A stretch of DNA of 23,101 nucleotides from a virus (lineage: Duplodnaviria; Heunggongvirae; Uroviricota; Caudoviricetes): positions 90,738 to 113,838 of IMG/VR virus record IMGVR_UViG_3300041955_001975; one strand, given 5' to 3'. The position numbers were made by a program, and so were the translations under genes. The notes under the pieces are model-generated. The model was given only the letters and a program-made list of their open reading frames with translations. It ran no database searches and was not told the origin of the DNA. This document shows positions 2,813 through 23,101 of the stretch, piece after piece. Position 1 is the stretch's first letter, and each line of letters opens with the position of its first letter.

Positions 2813-3385
2813 TCAGGACGGAGGAAGCGGAGCGGCCGGTGCGTACAGCGGCGTCACGGCCCAACTGTCGCTCGCCAACCATTCGGCGATGAAGCGCTCA
2901 CGCGGAACCCAGATGTAGTGATCCGTCGCATTGTCGTCCAACAGACCCGCCCACCGGGCGTCAAGGTGGACCAATGCGATCATGTGCTGCCCGCCTTGGA
3001 TCGCCACGCCACAGCCCCGTCGCGTGCGGCAGGCCCATTCCAGAAAACCCACGTCCCTCTGTTCGGACGTGTAGGCGTAGCGGATATGCTCCTTGTCGAG
3101 CTTTGCGGCCAAGTCCTCTGGCCCTGAAGCATTCCCGTAGGTTCGCCGCCAATGGTCGGCCATTCCATAGCGGCCCTGCCAACGCAAGAGCGTGACCATC
3201 GTCGCGTGAACACAGGAACCCTCGTCCTTGTCCCCGTACCAGTTCCCTTGGCGGATGGCGGCCGGCGGGTTGACTACCGGACGCTCCCTGGTGAGCCCGC
3301 ATCCCCCGTGATCTTGGCCGGCACAGCCGGCACAGACAAAAGCCAAAAGGACAAGGATGAATCTCGTCGGCACTCTCTTCCTCAT
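2813..3385 (-). CDS. Papain-fold (C39-like) cysteine peptidase, probable lipoprotein
   Basis: Start re-called to ATG 3385 (GGAGG SD, ATGA overlap with the upstream stop); lipobox FVCAG-C; EGSCVHA (Cys), GQHMIALV (His), LLDDN (Asp/Asn) in papain order. Confidence 0.75.
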   Translation of the reverse strand: MRKRVPTRFILVLLAFVCAGCAGQDHGGCGLTRERPVVNPPAAIRQGNWYGDKDEGSCVHATMVTLLRWQGRYGMADHWRRTYGNASGPEDLAAKLDKEHIRYAYTSEQRDVGFLEWACRTRRGCGVAIQGGQHMIALVHLDARWAGLLDDNATDHYIWVPRERFIAEWLASDSWAVTPLYAPAAPLPPS

Positions 3386-5369: not shown

Positions 5370-5912
5370 ATGGCGCTGATATGCCGACCGCAAAAGCGAC
5401 AGCCTCCCCGCCGACCGCCGGCCGGGCCAAAACCGGCCCTGCCAATGATCCAGCTTCCGATCTTTCGGGTGAAATCCTGCGACCTGGAAGACTACCTGTT
5501 CAAGGTGTACCGCATTAGCGGCTTTGACTTCCTGCTGGCCACGGGAATAAAAGCGGGCGAATGCCCCGAGTATGCCGTTCAGGCCACATTACCGCAGGGT
5601 CCCGACAGCGGGCGGCGGGCGGAAGAGATTCGTTCCGGCCGGCGAACAAAGAATGTGCCCCTGATCCTCAACGTCCTCTGCTTCGACGGCTACATCCCGG
5701 CCGGAAGGTATCTCGTCAGCACGCGCCCGGAGCCCAAGCCGATCGACGTTTACACGGCGCTTATGAAGAGCCGGCTCGACGTGCTGGACCCGGACTGCTT
5801 GGCCTTCAAAGAGGCCCATCGCTCCGACAGGACCTTCATGGCACAGGCGGTCGTAGTGGACAAGATGGTCGAGGATGCCGTCAAGCAAGAGCAAGAGTTG
5901 CTCGGGAAATGA
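5370..5912 (+). CDS. Hypothetical protein (180 aa)
   Basis: GGAGG SD before ATG 5370; globular-looking after a Pro-rich N-terminus. Confidence 0.75.
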   Translation: MALICRPQKRQPPRRPPAGPKPALPMIQLPIFRVKSCDLEDYLFKVYRISGFDFLLATGIKAGECPEYAVQATLPQGPDSGRRAEEIRSGRRTKNVPLILNVLCFDGYIPAGRYLVSTRPEPKPIDVYTALMKSRLDVLDPDCLAFKEAHRSDRTFMAQAVVVDKMVEDAVKQEQELLGK

Positions 5913-5937
5913 GGTCGCCTTGGCTCCGCTACGGGAA

Positions 5938-6270
5938 CTAAGACTTCTTCTTCGGCTTGGCGGCAGTCTTCATCTGGGCCGCAACAGAACGAGCTTCCGC
6001 CAGCAAGGCGCTCATGGCCTCGCCCCAAGTCTGAGCCTCGACCAAGTTCAGCGGGTCCGCAAAGGTTACGCCACTGAAACTGATCCTGATTTGCGAGCCC
6101 CGAGTCCCCTTGGGCACGGAAATCGCTGCCCGAATCTCCAGCGTCTTCGTACCGGAGAGCGGATTGACGGTTAGCTGAACGCCCCAGTCAAACTCCTCGC
6201 GCTGGATCATGCCTTCCTCCGTGGTCAAGCCTGACAAGACACGCTGCATCTTAGTCCTAGCTCTTGGCAT
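5938..6270 (-). CDS. Hypothetical protein (110 aa)
   Basis: GAGG SD; last gene of the leftward array, convergent with 5370-5912. Confidence 0.75.
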   Translation of the reverse strand: MPRARTKMQRVLSGLTTEEGMIQREEFDWGVQLTVNPLSGTKTLEIRAAISVPKGTRGSQIRISFSGVTFADPLNLVEAQTWGEAMSALLAEARSVAAQMKTAAKPKKKS

Positions 6271-6899: not shown

Positions 6900-7418
6900 T
6901 CATCGGCGACCCCGTTGCAGGTAGACCGGATCGAACAAGCGTTTGAGGATCGTACATGCGTAGACCGAAGCGTCCCGATTTGGCCGGTAGACTACCCAAT
7001 CCGGCAGAGCGGCTGCTGGACACCACAGGTACGCCGGCGGATCAGCCGCCGACCAGGCCATGCCCTGCTCAGCCGCCGCAGCCTTCAGATGCCGTGTAGT
7101 AAAGTCTACAATCTCCTGGCTGTCCAGCAACCCCACCCAGACATGAATCTCCGGGAGATTGCCCAGGGCGACCGAGAGGGCGCTTTCATACGCGCCGGGC
7201 GTCCATTCATAGGCAAAATGCGTGTTTATCACGCCATCGTCTTCCTCGCGGCGAATCCGCGGCCACTGCAACGAGCCGGCCTGGATCACCGCCTTGTACC
7301 TGTGACGCCACAAGACCGAGGCCGCGTGGTGGGCAGAAAACAGGCAAAGTCCGGGCCGGTTCTCCAGCCGGCCGACCTCCCGTTCAATCTCGGCGATGAT
7401 CTTGCCTCGCTTACCCAT
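6900..7418 (-). CDS. Transglutaminase/papain-like Cys-His-Asp protein
   Basis: PGLC(25), EIH(92)VW, EIVD(105)F match the C...HxW...D transglutaminase-like pattern. Confidence 0.6.
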   Translation of the reverse strand: MGKRGKIIAEIEREVGRLENRPGLCLFSAHHAASVLWRHRYKAVIQAGSLQWPRIRREEDDGVINTHFAYEWTPGAYESALSVALGNLPEIHVWVGLLDSQEIVDFTTRHLKAAAAEQGMAWSAADPPAYLWCPAAALPDWVVYRPNRDASVYACTILKRLFDPVYLQRGRR

Positions 7419-7802: not shown

Positions 7803-9236
7803 CTAGCCGAGAATCTCCACGATCATGCGGAAGGCGAAGTCCTGCAAGTCGCGGGAGCTGTCGCCGGCCTTCGTGATCCAGTGCAGGCACTCTTCCAGGG
7901 CCGTCTTCAGGACCGCCTTGTTCACGCCCTCGCCGCTGGCCTGATCGTCGGCGATGTAGACGCCGGTCTCGTCGCAGAACCCCATCGTCCGGCTGCCGGC
8001 GTTCATGGCGTCCCGGAAGCATCCGACCAGGGGCCTTTCCGTGCCGTTGGTCAGCTTGTAAGTCGTCAACCAGCCCCAGACCGTATTGACAGCCGCCTCC
8101 GCAGCCGGCGTTGCGGGCAACTTCTCGCGGCCCTTCTGCTCGTTCGCCGTGAGCACCTGGACGTCCGTCTTGATGCCGAAGCGGGCCGCCGCCTCAACGA
8201 AACCGGAAGCGAAGACCGGCCTGGCGACATGGCCCTTCCGCTCGACAAACTCGGCAATCGTGGCCGAGGGGCCGCACAACACGGCGTCAGAAGCCACAGC
8301 CTGCCACGCCTGTTGCCAGTTCTTCTGCTGCTCTTCCTTGGGCGTCTCCCATGACGGCAAGATATAATAGGAGTCCAGCACGGCCTCGAAGGCCGGCTTT
8401 TGATCGACCAGGGCCTTGAAGACCGGGACCAGCTCGGCCGCCGACGCCTTGTGGTACAGCTTGGCGACGGCCGCCTTGATCGCGTAGTCGCTGGAGTTGC
8501 GGCACTCGTCGATCTGCAACTCGGCCGCCTTGAAGTTGTAGTCGTAGACCGATTCATCCTTGGTCTCTTCGACCTCGCGGACGAAGACGCCCGCCCGGTA
8601 GATCACGGCCGTGCGAGTGCCACTGAGATTCCGGTCGCCCTTCGGCAGAAACGACTGGCGCACCTGCTCCGGCCGGTCCGAGAAGTGCAGGAAGCGTTTG
8701 GGCAACTCGTCGATGTACCGCTGCACGGTGGGGCTCAGTTCGACGTACACGCGGGTGTAGCCGTCCTTCGCCTTGACCTTCTCCTCCGAGACCGGGGTGA
8801 CGGCCAGCCGGCCGTCTTGCAAGGCGGGGATGAACTCGCCGTTCTCTTCCCGGACGGTCCGGTCGATGGCGTTGCTGATGAACTCGCGCAGCGCCATGCC
8901 CAGATCGGTCCAGTCGATGGCCCCGAAGTCGAGCACCCAGCCCAGGTCGATGGTCCGCGTGGACGTGCCGCCCATCTTGCACACGACGCGCTTGACCGGC
9001 TTGCGGACCAGGCCGTCGTCGATCTCGTCGTCCCGGGTCTGGAAGTCCAGACGGGTCTTGCCGCAGTAGACAAAGACCTTGAGGCCGGCGCGGAGCAGCA
9101 CGTTGATGGCGTGCTTGTTGCCGCTGCCGAATTGGCCGACCGTCCCCTCGACGCCGCAGTCGCGGGTCGTGCTGACGCCAAGCAAGGTAAAGCCTTCGAC
9201 GGGAGCCACGCCGGGATTCTGGATGCAGACGAACAT
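7803..9236 (-). CDS. Circularly permuted GHKL (HSP90/MutL/TopoVI-B-like) ATPase with C-terminal zincin-like motif
   Basis: G1-like IQNPG (5-9), G2 GQFGSG (34-39), then N-box ALREFISNAID (115-125); C-terminal TALEECLHWITKAGDSSRDLQ. Confidence 0.75.
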   Translation of the reverse strand: MFVCIQNPGVAPVEGFTLLGVSTTRDCGVEGTVGQFGSGNKHAINVLLRAGLKVFVYCGKTRLDFQTRDDEIDDGLVRKPVKRVVCKMGGTSTRTIDLGWVLDFGAIDWTDLGMALREFISNAIDRTVREENGEFIPALQDGRLAVTPVSEEKVKAKDGYTRVYVELSPTVQRYIDELPKRFLHFSDRPEQVRQSFLPKGDRNLSGTRTAVIYRAGVFVREVEETKDESVYDYNFKAAELQIDECRNSSDYAIKAAVAKLYHKASAAELVPVFKALVDQKPAFEAVLDSYYILPSWETPKEEQQKNWQQAWQAVASDAVLCGPSATIAEFVERKGHVARPVFASGFVEAAARFGIKTDVQVLTANEQKGREKLPATPAAEAAVNTVWGWLTTYKLTNGTERPLVGCFRDAMNAGSRTMGFCDETGVYIADDQASGEGVNKAVLKTALEECLHWITKAGDSSRDLQDFAFRMIVEILG

Positions 9237-9283: not shown

Positions 9284-9311
9284 ACTATACCACCAAATTG
9301 GAGAAAGTCAA
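9284..9311 (-). promoter_or_regulatory. Sigma70-like promoter, copy 2
   Basis: TTGACT-TTCTCCAATTTGGTGG-TATAGT, with extended -10 TGn. Confidence 0.85.
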
Positions 9312-17659: not shown

Positions 17660-17687
17660 ACAATACCAGAGTCGTGGAGAAAGTCGC
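17660..17687 (-). promoter_or_regulatory. Sigma70-like promoter, copy 3
   Basis: GCGACT-TTCTCCACGACTCTGG-TATTGT. Confidence 0.7.
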
Positions 17688-18555: not shown

Positions 18556-18583
18556 GTAATACCATAACTGTGGAGACAGTCAC
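18556..18583 (-). promoter_or_regulatory. Sigma70-like promoter, copy 4 (its -35 overlaps the end of the upstream gene)
   Basis: GTGACT-GTCTCCACAGTTATGG-TATTAC. Confidence 0.65.
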
Positions 18584-19842: not shown

Positions 19843-19870
19843 ACAATACCATAACTCTGGTGATAGTCAA
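19843..19870 (-). promoter_or_regulatory. Sigma70-like promoter, copy 5 (predicted leaderless mRNA)
   Basis: TTGACT-ATCACCAGAGTTATGG-TATTGT; ATG follows 6 nt after the -10. Confidence 0.8.
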
Positions 19871-20734: not shown

Positions 20735-21244
20735 TCAGTCCGGGTAACCCCACTTCTTTCGGAACTCCGGGTCACGCCGCTTGACAGCCAGGACGGTATG
20801 CACGAGGCTCGATCCCTCGCAGCCGGCCAGGGCCTCGCGCCACTTGTTGACGACGTACTTGCTGACGCCCCAGTAGAAGGCAATGGCCAACTCCTCTTCC
20901 TCACACACGGCACGCACGAGATCGCCGCACAAAATCGGGATCAACTGCCGCCTGTGGGTCACCGCCGGCCAGGGGATCGGTGCCTTCGTCATGGCCTCGA
21001 CGATCACGTCGCCCAGCATCTCGCAATGCAGTTTGTTGCCGGCACTGACGCTGGGTGGCGCATAGGGGCCGCCCTTCCATCGGTGCTTAGAAACTGGCGG
21101 GTACGTCTTCGCACCAATCAGAGCCGATGCTGTACTCATTTTCTTCCTCCGGCTCTCCGCCGGCTTCCTTTTCAGGGGTTTCGTGCCCCGCGCAGCGTTC
21201 GTACCTCTCACGCCCCTTGTCGGTTTCCGTAGCTTCTGGCCCAT
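20735..21244 (-). CDS. Putative HTH DNA-binding protein with highly basic N-terminal extension
   Basis: GPYAPP...APIPWP...RAV...AFYWGVSKYVVNKWREAL, an HTH-like family I recall from planctomycetes; alternative start at 21139. Confidence 0.7.
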   Translation of the reverse strand: MGQKLRKPTRGVRGTNAARGTKPLKRKPAESRRKKMSTASALIGAKTYPPVSKHRWKGGPYAPPSVSAGNKLHCEMLGDVIVEAMTKAPIPWPAVTHRRQLIPILCGDLVRAVCEEEELAIAFYWGVSKYVVNKWREALAGCEGSSLVHTVLAVKRRDPEFRKKWGYPD

Positions 21245-21273: not shown

Positions 21274-22026
21274 CTACACGATCGTAGTCTTTGGCCCTGC
21301 CAAGGCCCTGCCCAGGTAGCTCGCATCCAGGTAACGGCCGATCACACGGTGCAGAGCCGCCGCCGTGAAAAGCTTGCCGGCACTGGTGAGATGCCGTTCC
21401 TTATTCAGCCAGGCCACGATCTCGGCGAGCGTGTTGCCGTTCTCCCGCATCAACTTGATGCGGGGCAGCAAGTAGGCGTAGTGCTCCCGAATGGACTCCG
21501 ATTTGACCTTCGCCGCATTCTGCAAGCCTTCGTTCCAGCCACGCAGGTGCTCTCTGCCCTCCCAGTGACCGGGGCGTGCGGAGCCCAGCAGCTTGCCCTT
21601 CAGCCGAGCCGACTCCAGACCGGCCTTCGTGCGTGCCTGGATTGACTTCAACTCGGCCTGGGCCACGGCCGCCAGGACGTGAATCGTCAACTCGTTCGCC
21701 TGCGGGTTGTCGCAGCAGACAAAGCGGGTGCAGCTATTCATCAGGTTGGCCACGAACTCCACGTTGCGGGCGAGCCGGTCCAGCTTGGCGACGACCAGCG
21801 TAGCGCCGGTGGCCCGGCACTTGGCGATCGCCTGCTGGAGTTTCGGCCGGGTGACCGAGCTGCCCGTCTCAACCTCGGTGTACTGGTCGATCACCGGCAC
21901 ACCGAGTCGCTGACGCAGATAGTCCACGTCACGGACCTGGGCGTCAAGGCCCAGGCGGGTCTCTTCCTGCTTCCGGGTGCTCACGCGATAGTAAGCCACG
22001 ATGCTCTTGATCTGTTCGGCGGCCAT
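21274..22026 (-). CDS. Serine recombinase (resolvase/invertase catalytic domain + C-terminal DNA-binding domain), intact
   Basis: YYRVST (catalytic Ser), ETGS...RPKL, KLDRLARN; GAGGAAAG SD before ATG 22026. Confidence 0.92.
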   Translation of the reverse strand: MAAEQIKSIVAYYRVSTRKQEETRLGLDAQVRDVDYLRQRLGVPVIDQYTEVETGSSVTRPKLQQAIAKCRATGATLVVAKLDRLARNVEFVANLMNSCTRFVCCDNPQANELTIHVLAAVAQAELKSIQARTKAGLESARLKGKLLGSARPGHWEGREHLRGWNEGLQNAAKVKSESIREHYAYLLPRIKLMRENGNTLAEIVAWLNKERHLTSAGKLFTAAALHRVIGRYLDASYLGRALAGPKTTIV

Positions 22027-22057
22027 GTTGCTTTCCTCGGTGGTTGATTGTACTTCT

Positions 22058-22086
22058 AACATACACCACAGCCGAGGTAAAGTCAA
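22058..22086 (-). promoter_or_regulatory. Sigma70-like promoter, copy 6
   Basis: TTGACT-17 nt-TATGTT; shares agtcaaatgtg (11 bp) with copy 5. Confidence 0.75.
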
Positions 22087-22102
22087 ATGTGAAACAGCGA
22101 AA

Positions 22103-23101
22103 TCAGGCCAACTTCTGCCGCTCGGCCCTCTTCACGTAGCGCTTGCCAAGCGAGCGCACGTGCAGGCGGCGAACGAGCAGCATGTCAAAAGGCCGGCCGC
22201 CGGCCGTCAGGGAGCCCCGCTCATTGAGCTTGGTCGTGATCTCGTCATACGTGCTGCCCGCATCCCGCATTTGCGTAATCTCCCGGATCAAAGGGGCATA
22301 GTACGCTTCAACGTCAGACCTCTTCATGCCGAGTGCATCCCAGCGTTTCCGGCCGGGATTGCCACCGGGCCGAGCCCTTCCCAGGTACTCCTTACCCAAG
22401 TAGCGGCCGATCAGCCGGAAGAGGGACACTTGAGTGAAGGGCTTGCCGGCCGTCGTCAAGTGACCCTGCTGGTTGAGCCACTCCACGATCTCCGCGTAGG
22501 TGCCGCCCTCGTCCCGCCTCCGCTTGATTTCAGGGACCAGGAAGGCATAGTGATCCTTCGCACGGGCCATCCGCCGCGCCGAAGCACTGGCAACGGCTTT
22601 GTCCCAGCCGCGGAGGTGCTCGCGCCCCTTCCAGTGACCAGGGCGATTGGAGCCCAGCTTGACGCCGGCTTTCTTGAGTGCCGCAAGAGTCTCCTTCGTC
22701 CTTTGACTGGCCTGGCGTCCCTCGGCCTCCGCCGTCGCCGCCAGAATATGGATCGTTTCCTTGTTGGCAACCGGATTGTCGCAACAAAGAAACTCAATGC
22801 CGCTGTTCAGCAAGGCCAGGGTGACTCCCCGGTTCCGCACAAGCCGGCCGACACGACCAAACACCAGGCAGGCCCCCGACTCCCGGCAATGGGCAATGGC
22901 CTCAGCCAGCTTCGGGCGATTCCCCTTGTAGTCGCCGGTCTCCTGCTCCACATACTCAGCAAGGACCTTGGCCTTGATCCGGCCGCGAAGGTCTTCAGTA
23001 GCAGCCCGTTGGACCTCCATGCTGGCACACCCCTGCTTCATCCCCTGCCGGTAGTAGAGGATGACTTTGCTGATTACAGCGGCTTTGACGGTTGTGTCCA
23101 T
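22103..23101 (-). CDS. Serine recombinase paralog, catalytically degenerate, with duplicated C-terminal domain
   Basis: YYRQG instead of YxRVS; RVGRLVRN instead of KLDRLARN; shares RPGHWxGREHLRGW with its neighbour. ATG lies at the window edge, so the true start could be further out. Confidence 0.85.
   Translation of the reverse strand: MDTTVKAAVISKVILYYRQGMKQGCASMEVQRAATEDLRGRIKAKVLAEYVEQETGDYKGNRPKLAEAIAHCRESGACLVFGRVGRLVRNRGVTLALLNSGIEFLCCDNPVANKETIHILAATAEAEGRQASQRTKETLAALKKAGVKLGSNRPGHWKGREHLRGWDKAVASASARRMARAKDHYAFLVPEIKRRRDEGGTYAEIVEWLNQQGHLTTAGKPFTQVSLFRLIGRYLGKEYLGRARPGGNPGRKRWDALGMKRSDVEAYYAPLIREITQMRDAGSTYDEITTKLNERGSLTAGGRPFDMLLVRRLHVRSLGKRYVKRAERQKLA

Follow-up and report, generated by a model that had tools for sequence, protein, structure and literature searches.

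Serine recombinases are widely used genome-engineering tools, and several described systems bear on the gene pair analyzed here. At the res site of Tn3 and γδ, a catalytic resolvase dimer occupies site I while non-cleaving dimers sit on sites II and III, and TnpR also represses the divergent promoters of tnpA and tnpR. In SCCmec, the paralogous large serine recombinases CcrA and CcrB are both needed, and both possess the nucleophilic serine. Among phages, the large serine integrases and their RDFs (PhiC31 gp3, Bxb1 gp47, SPβ SprA/SprB) offer a further comparison; to our knowledge, none of the known RDFs is a homolog of its integrase. Likewise, we know of control by non-cleaving subunits only from studies with engineered S10 mutants of a single protein. 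A search of the literature, whose coverage is incomplete and which is therefore no proof of absence, returned no description of serine recombinase paralogs that lack the nucleophilic serine, or of the pair from planctomycete phages with which we are concerned.

The window, by which we mean the whole 23,101-nt stretch of viral DNA that was analyzed (positions 90,738 to 113,838 of the Caudoviricetes record IMGVR_UViG_3300041955_001975), contains two co-oriented genes for paralogous serine recombinases (Table 1). We refer to the upstream, Ser-less paralog as the dead copy and to the Ser-bearing paralog (database cluster P0045), whose stop codon lies at position 21274, as the active copy. Both pass the cut-off of the Resolvase family PF00239 (E values of 2.5e-13 for the dead and 1.8e-25 for the active copy), they are 45% identical across 248 amino acids (BLASTP, E 7e-74), and they have the motifs RPKL, CCDNP and RPGHWxGREHLRGW in common. 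Where the active copy reads YYRVS and DRLAR, the dead copy reads YYRQG and GRLVR. The open reading frames, their paralogy and these motifs are all as the original prediction, made from the DNA sequence alone, had described them. In a Pfam profile search, both proteins matched PF07508 over positions 6-58 of 102 only, the dead copy in two stretches, and neither matched the zinc-ribbon family PF13408 down to an E value of 1. With lengths of 250 and 332 amino acids, the two proteins fall outside the definition of large serine integrases, which have a complete recombinase domain plus a zinc-ribbon domain with coiled coil and usually exceed 400 amino acids.

Both the window and the IMG/VR provirus record stop precisely at the ATG of the dead copy, and this boundary splits the recombinase module in two. 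The N-terminus of the dead copy is nevertheless complete, because an in-frame TGA is located 9 nt upstream of the gene in three other contigs (L002-L004), together with a GAGG ribosome-binding site. The 332-aa frame, the preservation of which had been predicted, is whole in four independent contigs.

Table 1. Features of the recombinase module; coordinates are those of the window.
Feature	Position	Strand	Basis
Ser-less serine-recombinase paralog (P0001; dead copy), 332 aa	22103..23101	(-)	ORF and translation, Pfam, AF2 model
Codons 16-20, YYRQG: nucleophile loop, Gly20 replaces the catalytic Ser	23042..23056	(-)	Alignments; profile alignment to PDB 3guv and γδ resolvase
Codons 85-89, GRLVR: Gly85 replaces the Asp67 equivalent; Arg68 and Arg71 equivalents retained	22835..22849	(-)	Family alignment; alignment to Gin kLdRLgR
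DNA-binding unit 1, residues ~183-242, helical, HTH-like, ends RYLGKEYLG	22376..22555	(-)	Partial PF07508 and HTH_62 matches; AF2 helices 189-234
DNA-binding unit 2, residues ~258-322, lineage-specific internal duplicate of unit 1	22136..22330	(-)	Second BLASTP segment
Sigma-70-like promoter-like site for the active copy, TTGACT-17-TATGTT	22058..22086	(-)	Consensus scan; between the two genes
Ser-bearing serine recombinase (active copy), 250 aa from ATG, presumed catalytic partner	21274..22026	(-)	PF00239, E 1.8e-25
Protein X, 169 aa: basic tail, small beta domain, HTH-like helices	20735..21244	(-)	Alignment, AF2

This locus resembles Tn3 and γδ in the fold of the catalytic domain and in the position of a recombinase gene next to a divergent promoter region; that control at res requires DNA-bound subunits that never cleave is a further likeness, in this case to the role proposed below for the dead copy. 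In Tn3, however, one protein does both jobs, whereas two paralogs are present here, one of them permanently Ser-less. No res-like array of sites emerged when 15 intergenic regions were scanned; the DNA-binding part looks less like the resolvase HTH than like the first half of the recombinase domain of large serine recombinases (PF07508, positions 6-58), and the carrier is a phage of about 100 kb instead of a transposon. As with CcrA/CcrB, two co-oriented paralogous serine recombinase genes reside on one mobile element, but the two Ccr proteins are large and both keep the serine, while one partner is Ser-less here. With the large serine integrases and their RDFs the locus shares a phage-encoded recombinase and accessory protein(s) encoded nearby; both proteins, however, are without the zinc-ribbon and coiled-coil domains on which the directionality of those integrases depends, and the dead copy, in contrast to the RDFs, is a full-length paralog of its recombinase.

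In a profile alignment to solved resolvases and invertases, the Gly residues of the dead copy fall at the positions of Ser10 and Asp67; the nucleophile position is thus taken by Gly20, in agreement with the predicted catalytic death of the upstream copy. The Asp67 position is occupied by Gly in 60 of 61 Ser-less relatives and by Asp in all 39 Ser-bearing ones, and the Ser position of the Ser-less relatives is Trp in 41 cases and Gly or a gap in the remainder. In the dead copy, Y6, R8, R68 and R71 correspond to Y16, R18, R86 and R89, positions that are conserved in 57-61 of the 61 Ser-less and in 39/39 Ser-bearing relatives; in one Ser-less subclade, the R8 equivalent is missing as well (YYC, YHA). 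Not conserved among the Ser-less relatives are the equivalents of Q14, S39 and G40 (positions Q24, T55 and G56), and no loop residue that might act as an alternative nucleophile is conserved across the 61 aligned sequences. Because the nucleophile, the Q14/S39/G40 equivalents and Asp67 have been lost and no alternative nucleophile is conserved, the dead copy must, as judged from its sequence, be incapable of serine-recombinase chemistry. Its fold and helix E are retained, as are the phosphate-binding arginines, the RPGHWxGREHLRG linker and the DNA-binding unit. In Tn3 resolvase, cleavage is abolished by the S10A substitution (<1e-4 of the parental rate), whereas Asp67 is helpful but dispensable; binding to site I was lost in none of the active-site mutants tested, nor did any of them fully block synapsis (PMC2794168).

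The Ser-less copies are monophyletic (SH-like support 0.91) and account for no fewer than 34 separate clusters at 50% identity within the top 150 representatives; their Ser-bearing partners form a separate clade (support 0.82). Far from evolving neutrally, the dead copy is under purifying selection as strong as that acting on its partner: between the window and contig L004, dN/dS amounts to 0.18 for the dead and 0.12 for the active copy, it ranges from 0.16 to 0.33 and from 0.16 to 0.50, respectively, in ten other ortholog pairs, and the evolutionary rates of the two copies are equal. Identity among dead copies, when set against that among active copies, is 0.34 vs 0.78 in the nucleophile loop, 0.44 vs 0.61 in the catalytic domain, 0.65 vs 0.53 in the linker and 0.69 vs 0.50 in the HTH. 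In these alignments, constraint on the dead copy has moved from the active-site loop to the linker and the DNA-binding domain. Conservation within the Ser-less clade peaks in DNA-binding unit 1, whose AGKPFTQTAVWRLIxRYLGKE segment is near-invariant among phages whose other proteins are about 50% diverged.

An AF2 model of the dead copy (pLDDT 89.4) combines a resolvase fold with a long helix E and two helical units. In Foldseek, it comes closest to serine integrases, among them PhiC31 and Bxb1, and the catalytic domains of 3guv and 3bvp are matched as well; a phmmer search of PDB sequences with the dead copy alone gave no match, and solved structures were reached only via the family profile. 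The doubled C-terminal unit that had been claimed for the upstream copy is present, since residues 235-326 align a second time to the C-terminal unit of the partner (34%, BLASTP E 1e-10), but it is no defining feature of dead copies. Unit 2 scores 125 against its own unit 1 and 64-87 against the second units of other members, and the doubling is a lineage-specific internal duplication that is not general to the Ser-less clade. A doubled unit as the hallmark of dead copies was rejected, as Ser-bearing relatives have one too and that of the window's lineage arose independently.

The usual order of the module is a small, divergently transcribed gene designated c3, the Ser-less copy, X, an interval of 0-3 kb, and the Ser-bearing copy; in the lineage of the window, where c3 lies just outside the analyzed stretch, the order is dead, active, X. 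Synteny of c3, dead copy, X and active copy was found in 16-17 loci, and the pairing of an active with a dead copy recurs widely. A Ser-bearing copy is located downstream on the same strand in 16/19 genome and viral loci; in an independent metagenome set, by which the neighborhoods of P0008, P0049 and P0088 were covered, 72 of 80 loci were Ser-less, and of the 24 loci for which 3 kb or more of downstream sequence was available, 21 had a Ser-bearing copy on the same strand across a gap of 30-3334 nt. The tandem arrangement foreseen by the original prediction therefore holds as a pairing of paralogs but not as a general layout, as direct adjacency is confined to the window, L004, L063 and L220, with X and 0.5-3 kb usually in between. 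Within the available sequence, no Ser-bearing copy was found for the Ser-less loci L031, L049 and L094 or for the metagenome loci L217, L228 and L229. In four loci (L005, L074, L075, L076), the c3-adjacent copy still has its Ser, and there is no second copy within 6 kb.

Protein X is present in all 17 clustered pair-bearing loci (window included) and in 43/44 metagenome loci, with a mean column identity of 57% in its alignment (A3); fold searches with its AF2 model (pLDDT 79) gave only weak, generic HTH matches of the LuxR/GerE type (Z up to 3.7). The c3 gene was present in 49 of 49 metagenome loci. Neither c3 nor X matched Pfam or PHROG, and in a protein-atlas search, c3 had no match, while X matched only hypothetical clusters of viral origin. 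The distance matrices of dead and active copies are correlated (r=0.81), as are those of the dead copy and X (r=0.93), but such co-divergence, like the co-occurrence of the genes, would also be expected from plain vertical inheritance in one phage lineage. The HTH of the dead copy is slightly closer to that of its own partner than to those of other partners (0.533 vs 0.505, permutation p 0.0014); helix E is 46% identical between partners, and its own-partner similarity is not significant (p 0.09).

The promoter-like sites of c3 and of the dead gene are arranged divergently, back to back, in their intergenic region. A 28-nt look-alike of the active copy's promoter-like site is found ahead of the dead copy, shortly beyond the end of the window; in L004, the two form repeat family D17 (5928-5955 and 7013-7040, 82% identical). 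When 15 intergenic regions between c3 and the dead gene were scanned for k-mers and dyads, only promoter elements were detected; a diverged or half-site array could escape such a scan. The active copy had been credited with a promoter of its own between the genes; a promoter-like site is there, but it is not of the CCA-N6-TGG motif class. This promoter class is real (4 matches in the window vs 0.29 expected), yet the candidate role of its dyads as recombinase binding sites was rejected, as they are absent from both recombinase promoters.

The module belongs to a family of phages and prophages of Planctomycetota with a size of about 90-115 kb. In the 113.8-kb provirus G000, no tyrosine integrase, rve transposase, other resolvase or large serine recombinase was found. 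Because the active copy is the only recognizable recombinase of this integrated provirus, it probably performs both integration and excision, an assignment made by elimination. In the metagenome-assembled genome G001, the prophage runs into long host contigs on both sides, and the two flanks are linked by no significant match or repeat; no empty site was found in 41 relatives. The repeats of L004 comprise only chance-level pairs, the best inverted one (28 nt, 79%, 5398-5425 and 8079-8106) lying inside coding regions, with about 0.7 such pairs expected by chance according to our own estimate. Many long contigs stop 0-3 kb beyond c3. A fixed position of the module at the prophage edge was considered and rejected, since conserved phage genes continue beyond c3 in other family members.

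The existence of a Ser-less clade, the nearly constant presence of the partner, purifying selection and the conserved DNA-binding domain uphold the view of the upstream copy as a paralog that has lost catalysis but is maintained for a function, and we are rather confident that selection preserves it as a DNA-binding factor without catalytic activity, linked to the active copy. Decay, too, would lose catalytic residues, but the dead copy is neither a decaying pseudogene nor an artefact of annotating a recent duplication; both interpretations are refuted by its intact frame in four contigs, its low dN/dS values, the monophyly and breadth of its clade, and a rate of evolution equal to that of the active copy. 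It is also very improbable that the protein is still an enzyme that uses another nucleophile (Tyr16/17, Cys25 or Ser27) or works as a nickase or topoisomerase. The conserved Y6, R8, R68 and R71 equivalents would fit such an activity, as would the presence of Cys25 and Ser27 near the loop in the window's protein; the loop, however, is poorly conserved and contains no clade-wide residue, Trp prevails at the Ser position, a subclade dispenses with R8, and Y6 is conserved in all serine recombinases but never acts as the nucleophile.

More serious, although in our estimation still unlikely, is the explanation that the dead copy is a pure transcription factor that regulates the c3/early-operon or other phage promoters and takes no part in recombination. 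Its DNA-binding unit is indeed its most conserved part, its gene comes first after a conserved promoter that lies between divergent genes, and Tn3-type resolvases are textbook examples of recombinases that double as repressors at res. A simple HTH repressor, however, would have no need for the catalytic fold, helix E and the three phosphate-binding arginines, all of which are under selection; furthermore, the Ser-less copy almost never occurs without the Ser-bearing one, its HTH co-varies slightly with the partner, and operator-like repeats were not found in the 15 c3-dead intergenic regions. We consider it less probable again that the dead copy serves as a dominant-negative brake, in which mixed dimers or tetramers would bind and synapse but not complete double-strand exchange, so that integration or excision would be held off until its level falls. 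Serine recombination requires cleavage by all four subunits (textbook knowledge), the dimer/tetramer interface in helix E is conserved in both copies, and a promoter for each gene would allow the ratio of the proteins to be regulated. Yet an interface alone would suffice for a brake, whereas the strongest constraint rests on the DNA-binding unit; helix E is not significantly matched to the own partner, and a permanently encoded poison subunit, conserved for so long, would be costly. The four roles originally envisaged for a pseudo-enzyme (directionality factor, architectural subunit, dominant-negative inhibitor, repressor) are all kept as candidates, while the pseudo-enzyme itself stands.

With somewhat better than even confidence, and on the basis of sequence comparisons, we favor a reading in which the dead copy is the non-catalytic DNA-binding partner of a minimal serine recombinase, acting as an architectural or regulatory subunit and/or as a promoter repressor. 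After an old duplication, the c3-adjacent copy would have given up catalysis and specialized in DNA binding, so as to serve the active enzyme as a partner that does not cleave. Much like the resolvase dimers on sites II and III of res, it could sit on sites with an accessory or regulatory function and, by occupying them, control the timing and direction of the 250-aa recombinase; repression of the divergent c3/recombinase promoters, for which TnpR at res is a precedent, is a further possible function. A specific architectural or accessory-site role is a more tentative proposal, to which we give slightly less than an even chance. More speculative, and rather doubtful, is a split machine in which the 250-aa recombinase would integrate and excise these ~100-kb phages only when the Ser-less paralog, X and perhaps c3 supply the site selection and directionality for which large integrases use their own zinc-ribbon and coiled-coil domains. 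In such a serine-recombinase synaptosome, catalysis and regulation would be naturally divided between separate subunits.

Should the dead copy set direction or site choice, the module would provide a compact recombinase with a separable regulatory subunit and make the licensing of catalysis by accessory subunits directly accessible to study. The annotation "recombinase family protein" in Planctomycetota and their phages conceals a large clade of pseudo-enzymes, and the pair described here, which persists across a broad family of planctomycete phages, would represent a natural division of labor fixed in two genes.

The flagged interval, lying in the terminal 23.1 kb of a 113,838-bp IMG/VR provirus record, is taken up by two minus-strand ORFs whose products both match PF00239. 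One product lacks and the other carries the nucleophilic serine of serine recombinases; they share 45% identity across a 248-residue alignment (E 7e-74), which bears out the original prediction of a paralogous tandem pair. Alignment of the family profile to solved resolvases, invertases and integrases places Gly20 of the upstream protein at the nucleophile Ser position and Gly85 at that of Asp67 (Tn3 resolvase numbering), so that the predicted absence of the nucleophile is upheld. A TTGACT-17-TATGTT promoter-like site is present between the genes, where a separate promoter for the downstream copy had been proposed, and a GAGGAAAG ribosome-binding site lies 5' of the Ser-bearing ATG, the same start as in database cluster P0045. 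The provirus record ends exactly at the ATG of the Ser-less gene. The Ser-less protein is complete at its N-terminus, because three further loci (L002, L003, L004) carry the same gene with its upstream DNA and have an in-frame TGA 9 nt ahead of the ATG.

Positions of the recombinase genes, their module neighbors and one promoter class (window coordinates unless a locus is named)
Feature	Position	Strand	Description
Ser-less recombinase paralog P0001	22103-23101	minus	ORF, 332 aa
Ser-bearing recombinase	21274-22026	minus	ORF, 250 aa counted from ATG
X	20735-21244	minus	module ORF
c3	L004:5371-5817	minus	148 aa; just past window end 23101
GACTnnCWCCA-N6-TGG promoter	9290-9309	minus	
GACTnnCWCCA-N6-TGG promoter	17666-17685	minus	
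GACTnnCWCCA-N6-TGG promoter	18562-18581	minus	
GACTnnCWCCA-N6-TGG promoter	19849-19868	minus	

In the AF2 model of the 332-aa protein (pLDDT 89.4), the resolvase fold is intact and is accompanied by a long helix E and by two helical units; PhiC31, Bxb1 and related integrases match the model best by structure. The C-terminal unit is indeed doubled: residues 235-326 align a second time to that of the Ser-bearing partner, and PF07508 matches two partial stretches. The nearest sequences to this second unit are the protein's own first unit and its ortholog in P0004, and the second units of other family members are less similar. The doubling is an internal duplication specific to the window's lineage, and P0005 (69% identity) has none. 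It is no hallmark of the Ser-less clade, since several family members, Ser-bearing and Ser-less, have second units.

A search of 5.8 billion proteins yielded 474 relatives. In an alignment of the best 113, neither the Ser nor the Asp is present in 61, both are canonical in 39, and the remaining 13 are mixed. Twelve of the latter lack the Ser and keep the Asp; the other, P0112 (YYRRSR/RLGRLSR), aligns a Ser with the nucleophile and replaces the Asp by Gly. When 1.84 billion cluster representatives were searched with a profile, 449 matched at E<=1e-30, and the top 150 of these include at least 34 distinct clusters (at 50% identity) of Ser-less proteins. In their commonest form, the Ser is replaced by Trp (YYRxWxKK) in combination with GRLAR, and YYRQG with GRLVR is the form of the window's sublineage. 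A phylogeny of 132 sequences places the Ser-less proteins in a single clade (support 0.91), next to that of the partner actives (0.82), and both share one node (0.93) with a third, Ser-bearing clade as an unordered trio. The literature searched held no description of Ser-less serine-recombinase paralogs, and a search on Planctomycetes prophages gave nothing related.

Every family member was classified in 57 genome loci (nearly all from Planctomycetota MAGs), 80 viral and 80 metagenome loci, and the active/dead pairing proved to be conserved. A same-strand Ser-bearing copy lies downstream in 16 of the 19 Ser-less loci of the genome and viral sets; 72 of the 80 metagenome matches are Ser-less, and 21 of the 24 such loci whose sequence extends 3 kb or more downstream possess the partner, at a gap of 30-3334 nt. 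Clustering of all ORFs revealed a fixed module of c3, the Ser-less gene, X, 0.1-3 kb of variable DNA, the Ser-bearing gene and a SprT-like gene; the order is Ser-less, Ser-bearing, X in the window, L004, L063 and L220. The divergently transcribed c3 (130-150 aa; 49/49 testable metagenome loci) has no Pfam, PHROG or atlas match. X (140-175 aa; 43/44 metagenome loci), a member of a viral hypothetical family, combines a basic tail and a beta domain of the pattern PPxxFxWRAGPYxPP with a C-terminus that resembles an HTH. In four loci (L005, L074, L075, L076), the c3-adjacent recombinase keeps its Ser and has no second copy within 6 kb. Probably, a single ancestral recombinase beside c3 was duplicated, and catalysis was then lost in the copy left in place.

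Although c3 is a module member, it lies outside the provirus record, so the IMG/VR boundary falls within phage DNA, at the edge of a gene. Contigs of 22-182 kb stop 0-3 kb past c3 far above chance frequency (behind L169, L204/L063, L224, L071, L073 and L171/L080), which could reflect an assembly break, a genome terminus or an att site; in other phages, conserved genes run on past c3. Just outside the provirus, arrays of GC-rich ~20-nt repeats (CAGGCCAGCGGCCGG...; L004:430-960 and 3150-3380; G001:C5:608612-609279) flank an amidoligase (PF12224) and glutamine-amidotransferase gene pair.

In MAG G001, one part of the prophage lies at the end of a 699-kb contig and the other at the end of a 574-kb contig; both contigs run into other DNA, so the prophage is integrated. 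Past its other end, the genes at G001:C9:28000-44000 (DUF499, DUF1156, Schlafen/AlbA_2, SNF2 helicase with NOV_C) look defence-like, and a 3.4-kb insertion/deletion near the left end (G001:C9:24075-27509 versus G000:927/928) distinguishes it from the IMG/VR record. No tyrosine integrase, rve transposase, other resolvase or large serine recombinase was found in the provirus, nor any tyrosine integrase in two further near-complete relatives; the sole visible candidate for the integrating enzyme is the Ser-bearing copy. Among related phages, G045 has three tandem tyrosine recombinase genes (G045:C1:2858-5227) and G046 has one; G042-G044, like the window's provirus, have none. No recombination site was found: the prophage flanks share no significant repeat, and 41 relatives contained no empty site. 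The c3-Ser-less intergenic region has back-to-back promoter-like sites, one for each gene, a layout resembling the tnpA-res-tnpR region of Tn3; these regions have no common dyads except the promoter elements TTGACTTT and GTAGTGTAAG. Both recombinase promoters are a variant (TTGACTTT...CTGTGrTGTA) different from the GACTnnCWCCA-N6-TGG class, which occurs four times in the window versus 0.29 expected.

Neutral decay of the Ser-less copy is excluded by its dN/dS values (Nei-Gojobori): 0.18 against the 97%-identical MAG copy (active, 0.12) and 0.16-0.33 in ten deeper ortholog pairs (active, 0.16-0.50). That the gene is a decaying pseudogene is hence extremely improbable. Ser-less copy, partner and X evolve at about equal rates, and pairwise distances among the Ser-less copies are correlated with the distances among their partners (r 0.81) and among the X proteins (r 0.93). 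Mean identities within the Ser-less clade versus within partner actives are 0.34 versus 0.78 in the nucleophile loop, 0.44 versus 0.61 in the catalytic domain, 0.52 versus 0.56 in helix E, 0.65 versus 0.53 in the linker and 0.69 versus 0.50 in the DNA-binding unit. The clade lacks the equivalents of Ser10, Q14, S39, G40 and Asp67, with Gly near-invariant at the last position, and retains those of Y6, R8, Q19, D36, R45, R68 and R71, together with helix E, the RPGHWxGREHLRG linker and the HTH. Its DNA-binding units resemble those of their own partners slightly, yet significantly, more than those of other partners (0.533 versus 0.505; p 0.0014), which hints at co-evolution or gene conversion.

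Strand exchange needs cleavage by all four subunits of the serine-recombinase tetramer, and the Ser-less protein therefore cannot serve as a catalytic subunit. The S10A substitution in Tn3 resolvase lowers cleavage more than 10^4-fold, so that loss of the Ser by itself suffices for inactivity; D67 mutants are still active, and all the active-site mutants tested in that study still bound, with synapsis wholly blocked in none of them (PMC2794168). Residual catalysis by the Ser-less protein is very unlikely. Its whole fold, phosphate-binding arginines and strongly conserved DNA-binding unit point to a protein that would still sit on DNA as a resolvase-like dimer. That it serves purely as a transcription factor is conceivable, if rather unlikely, and a dominant-negative brake on recombination is more doubtful still. 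We favor the view that the Ser-less protein acts as a non-cleaving architectural or regulatory partner of the Ser-bearing recombinase and may possibly be an autorepressor as well.
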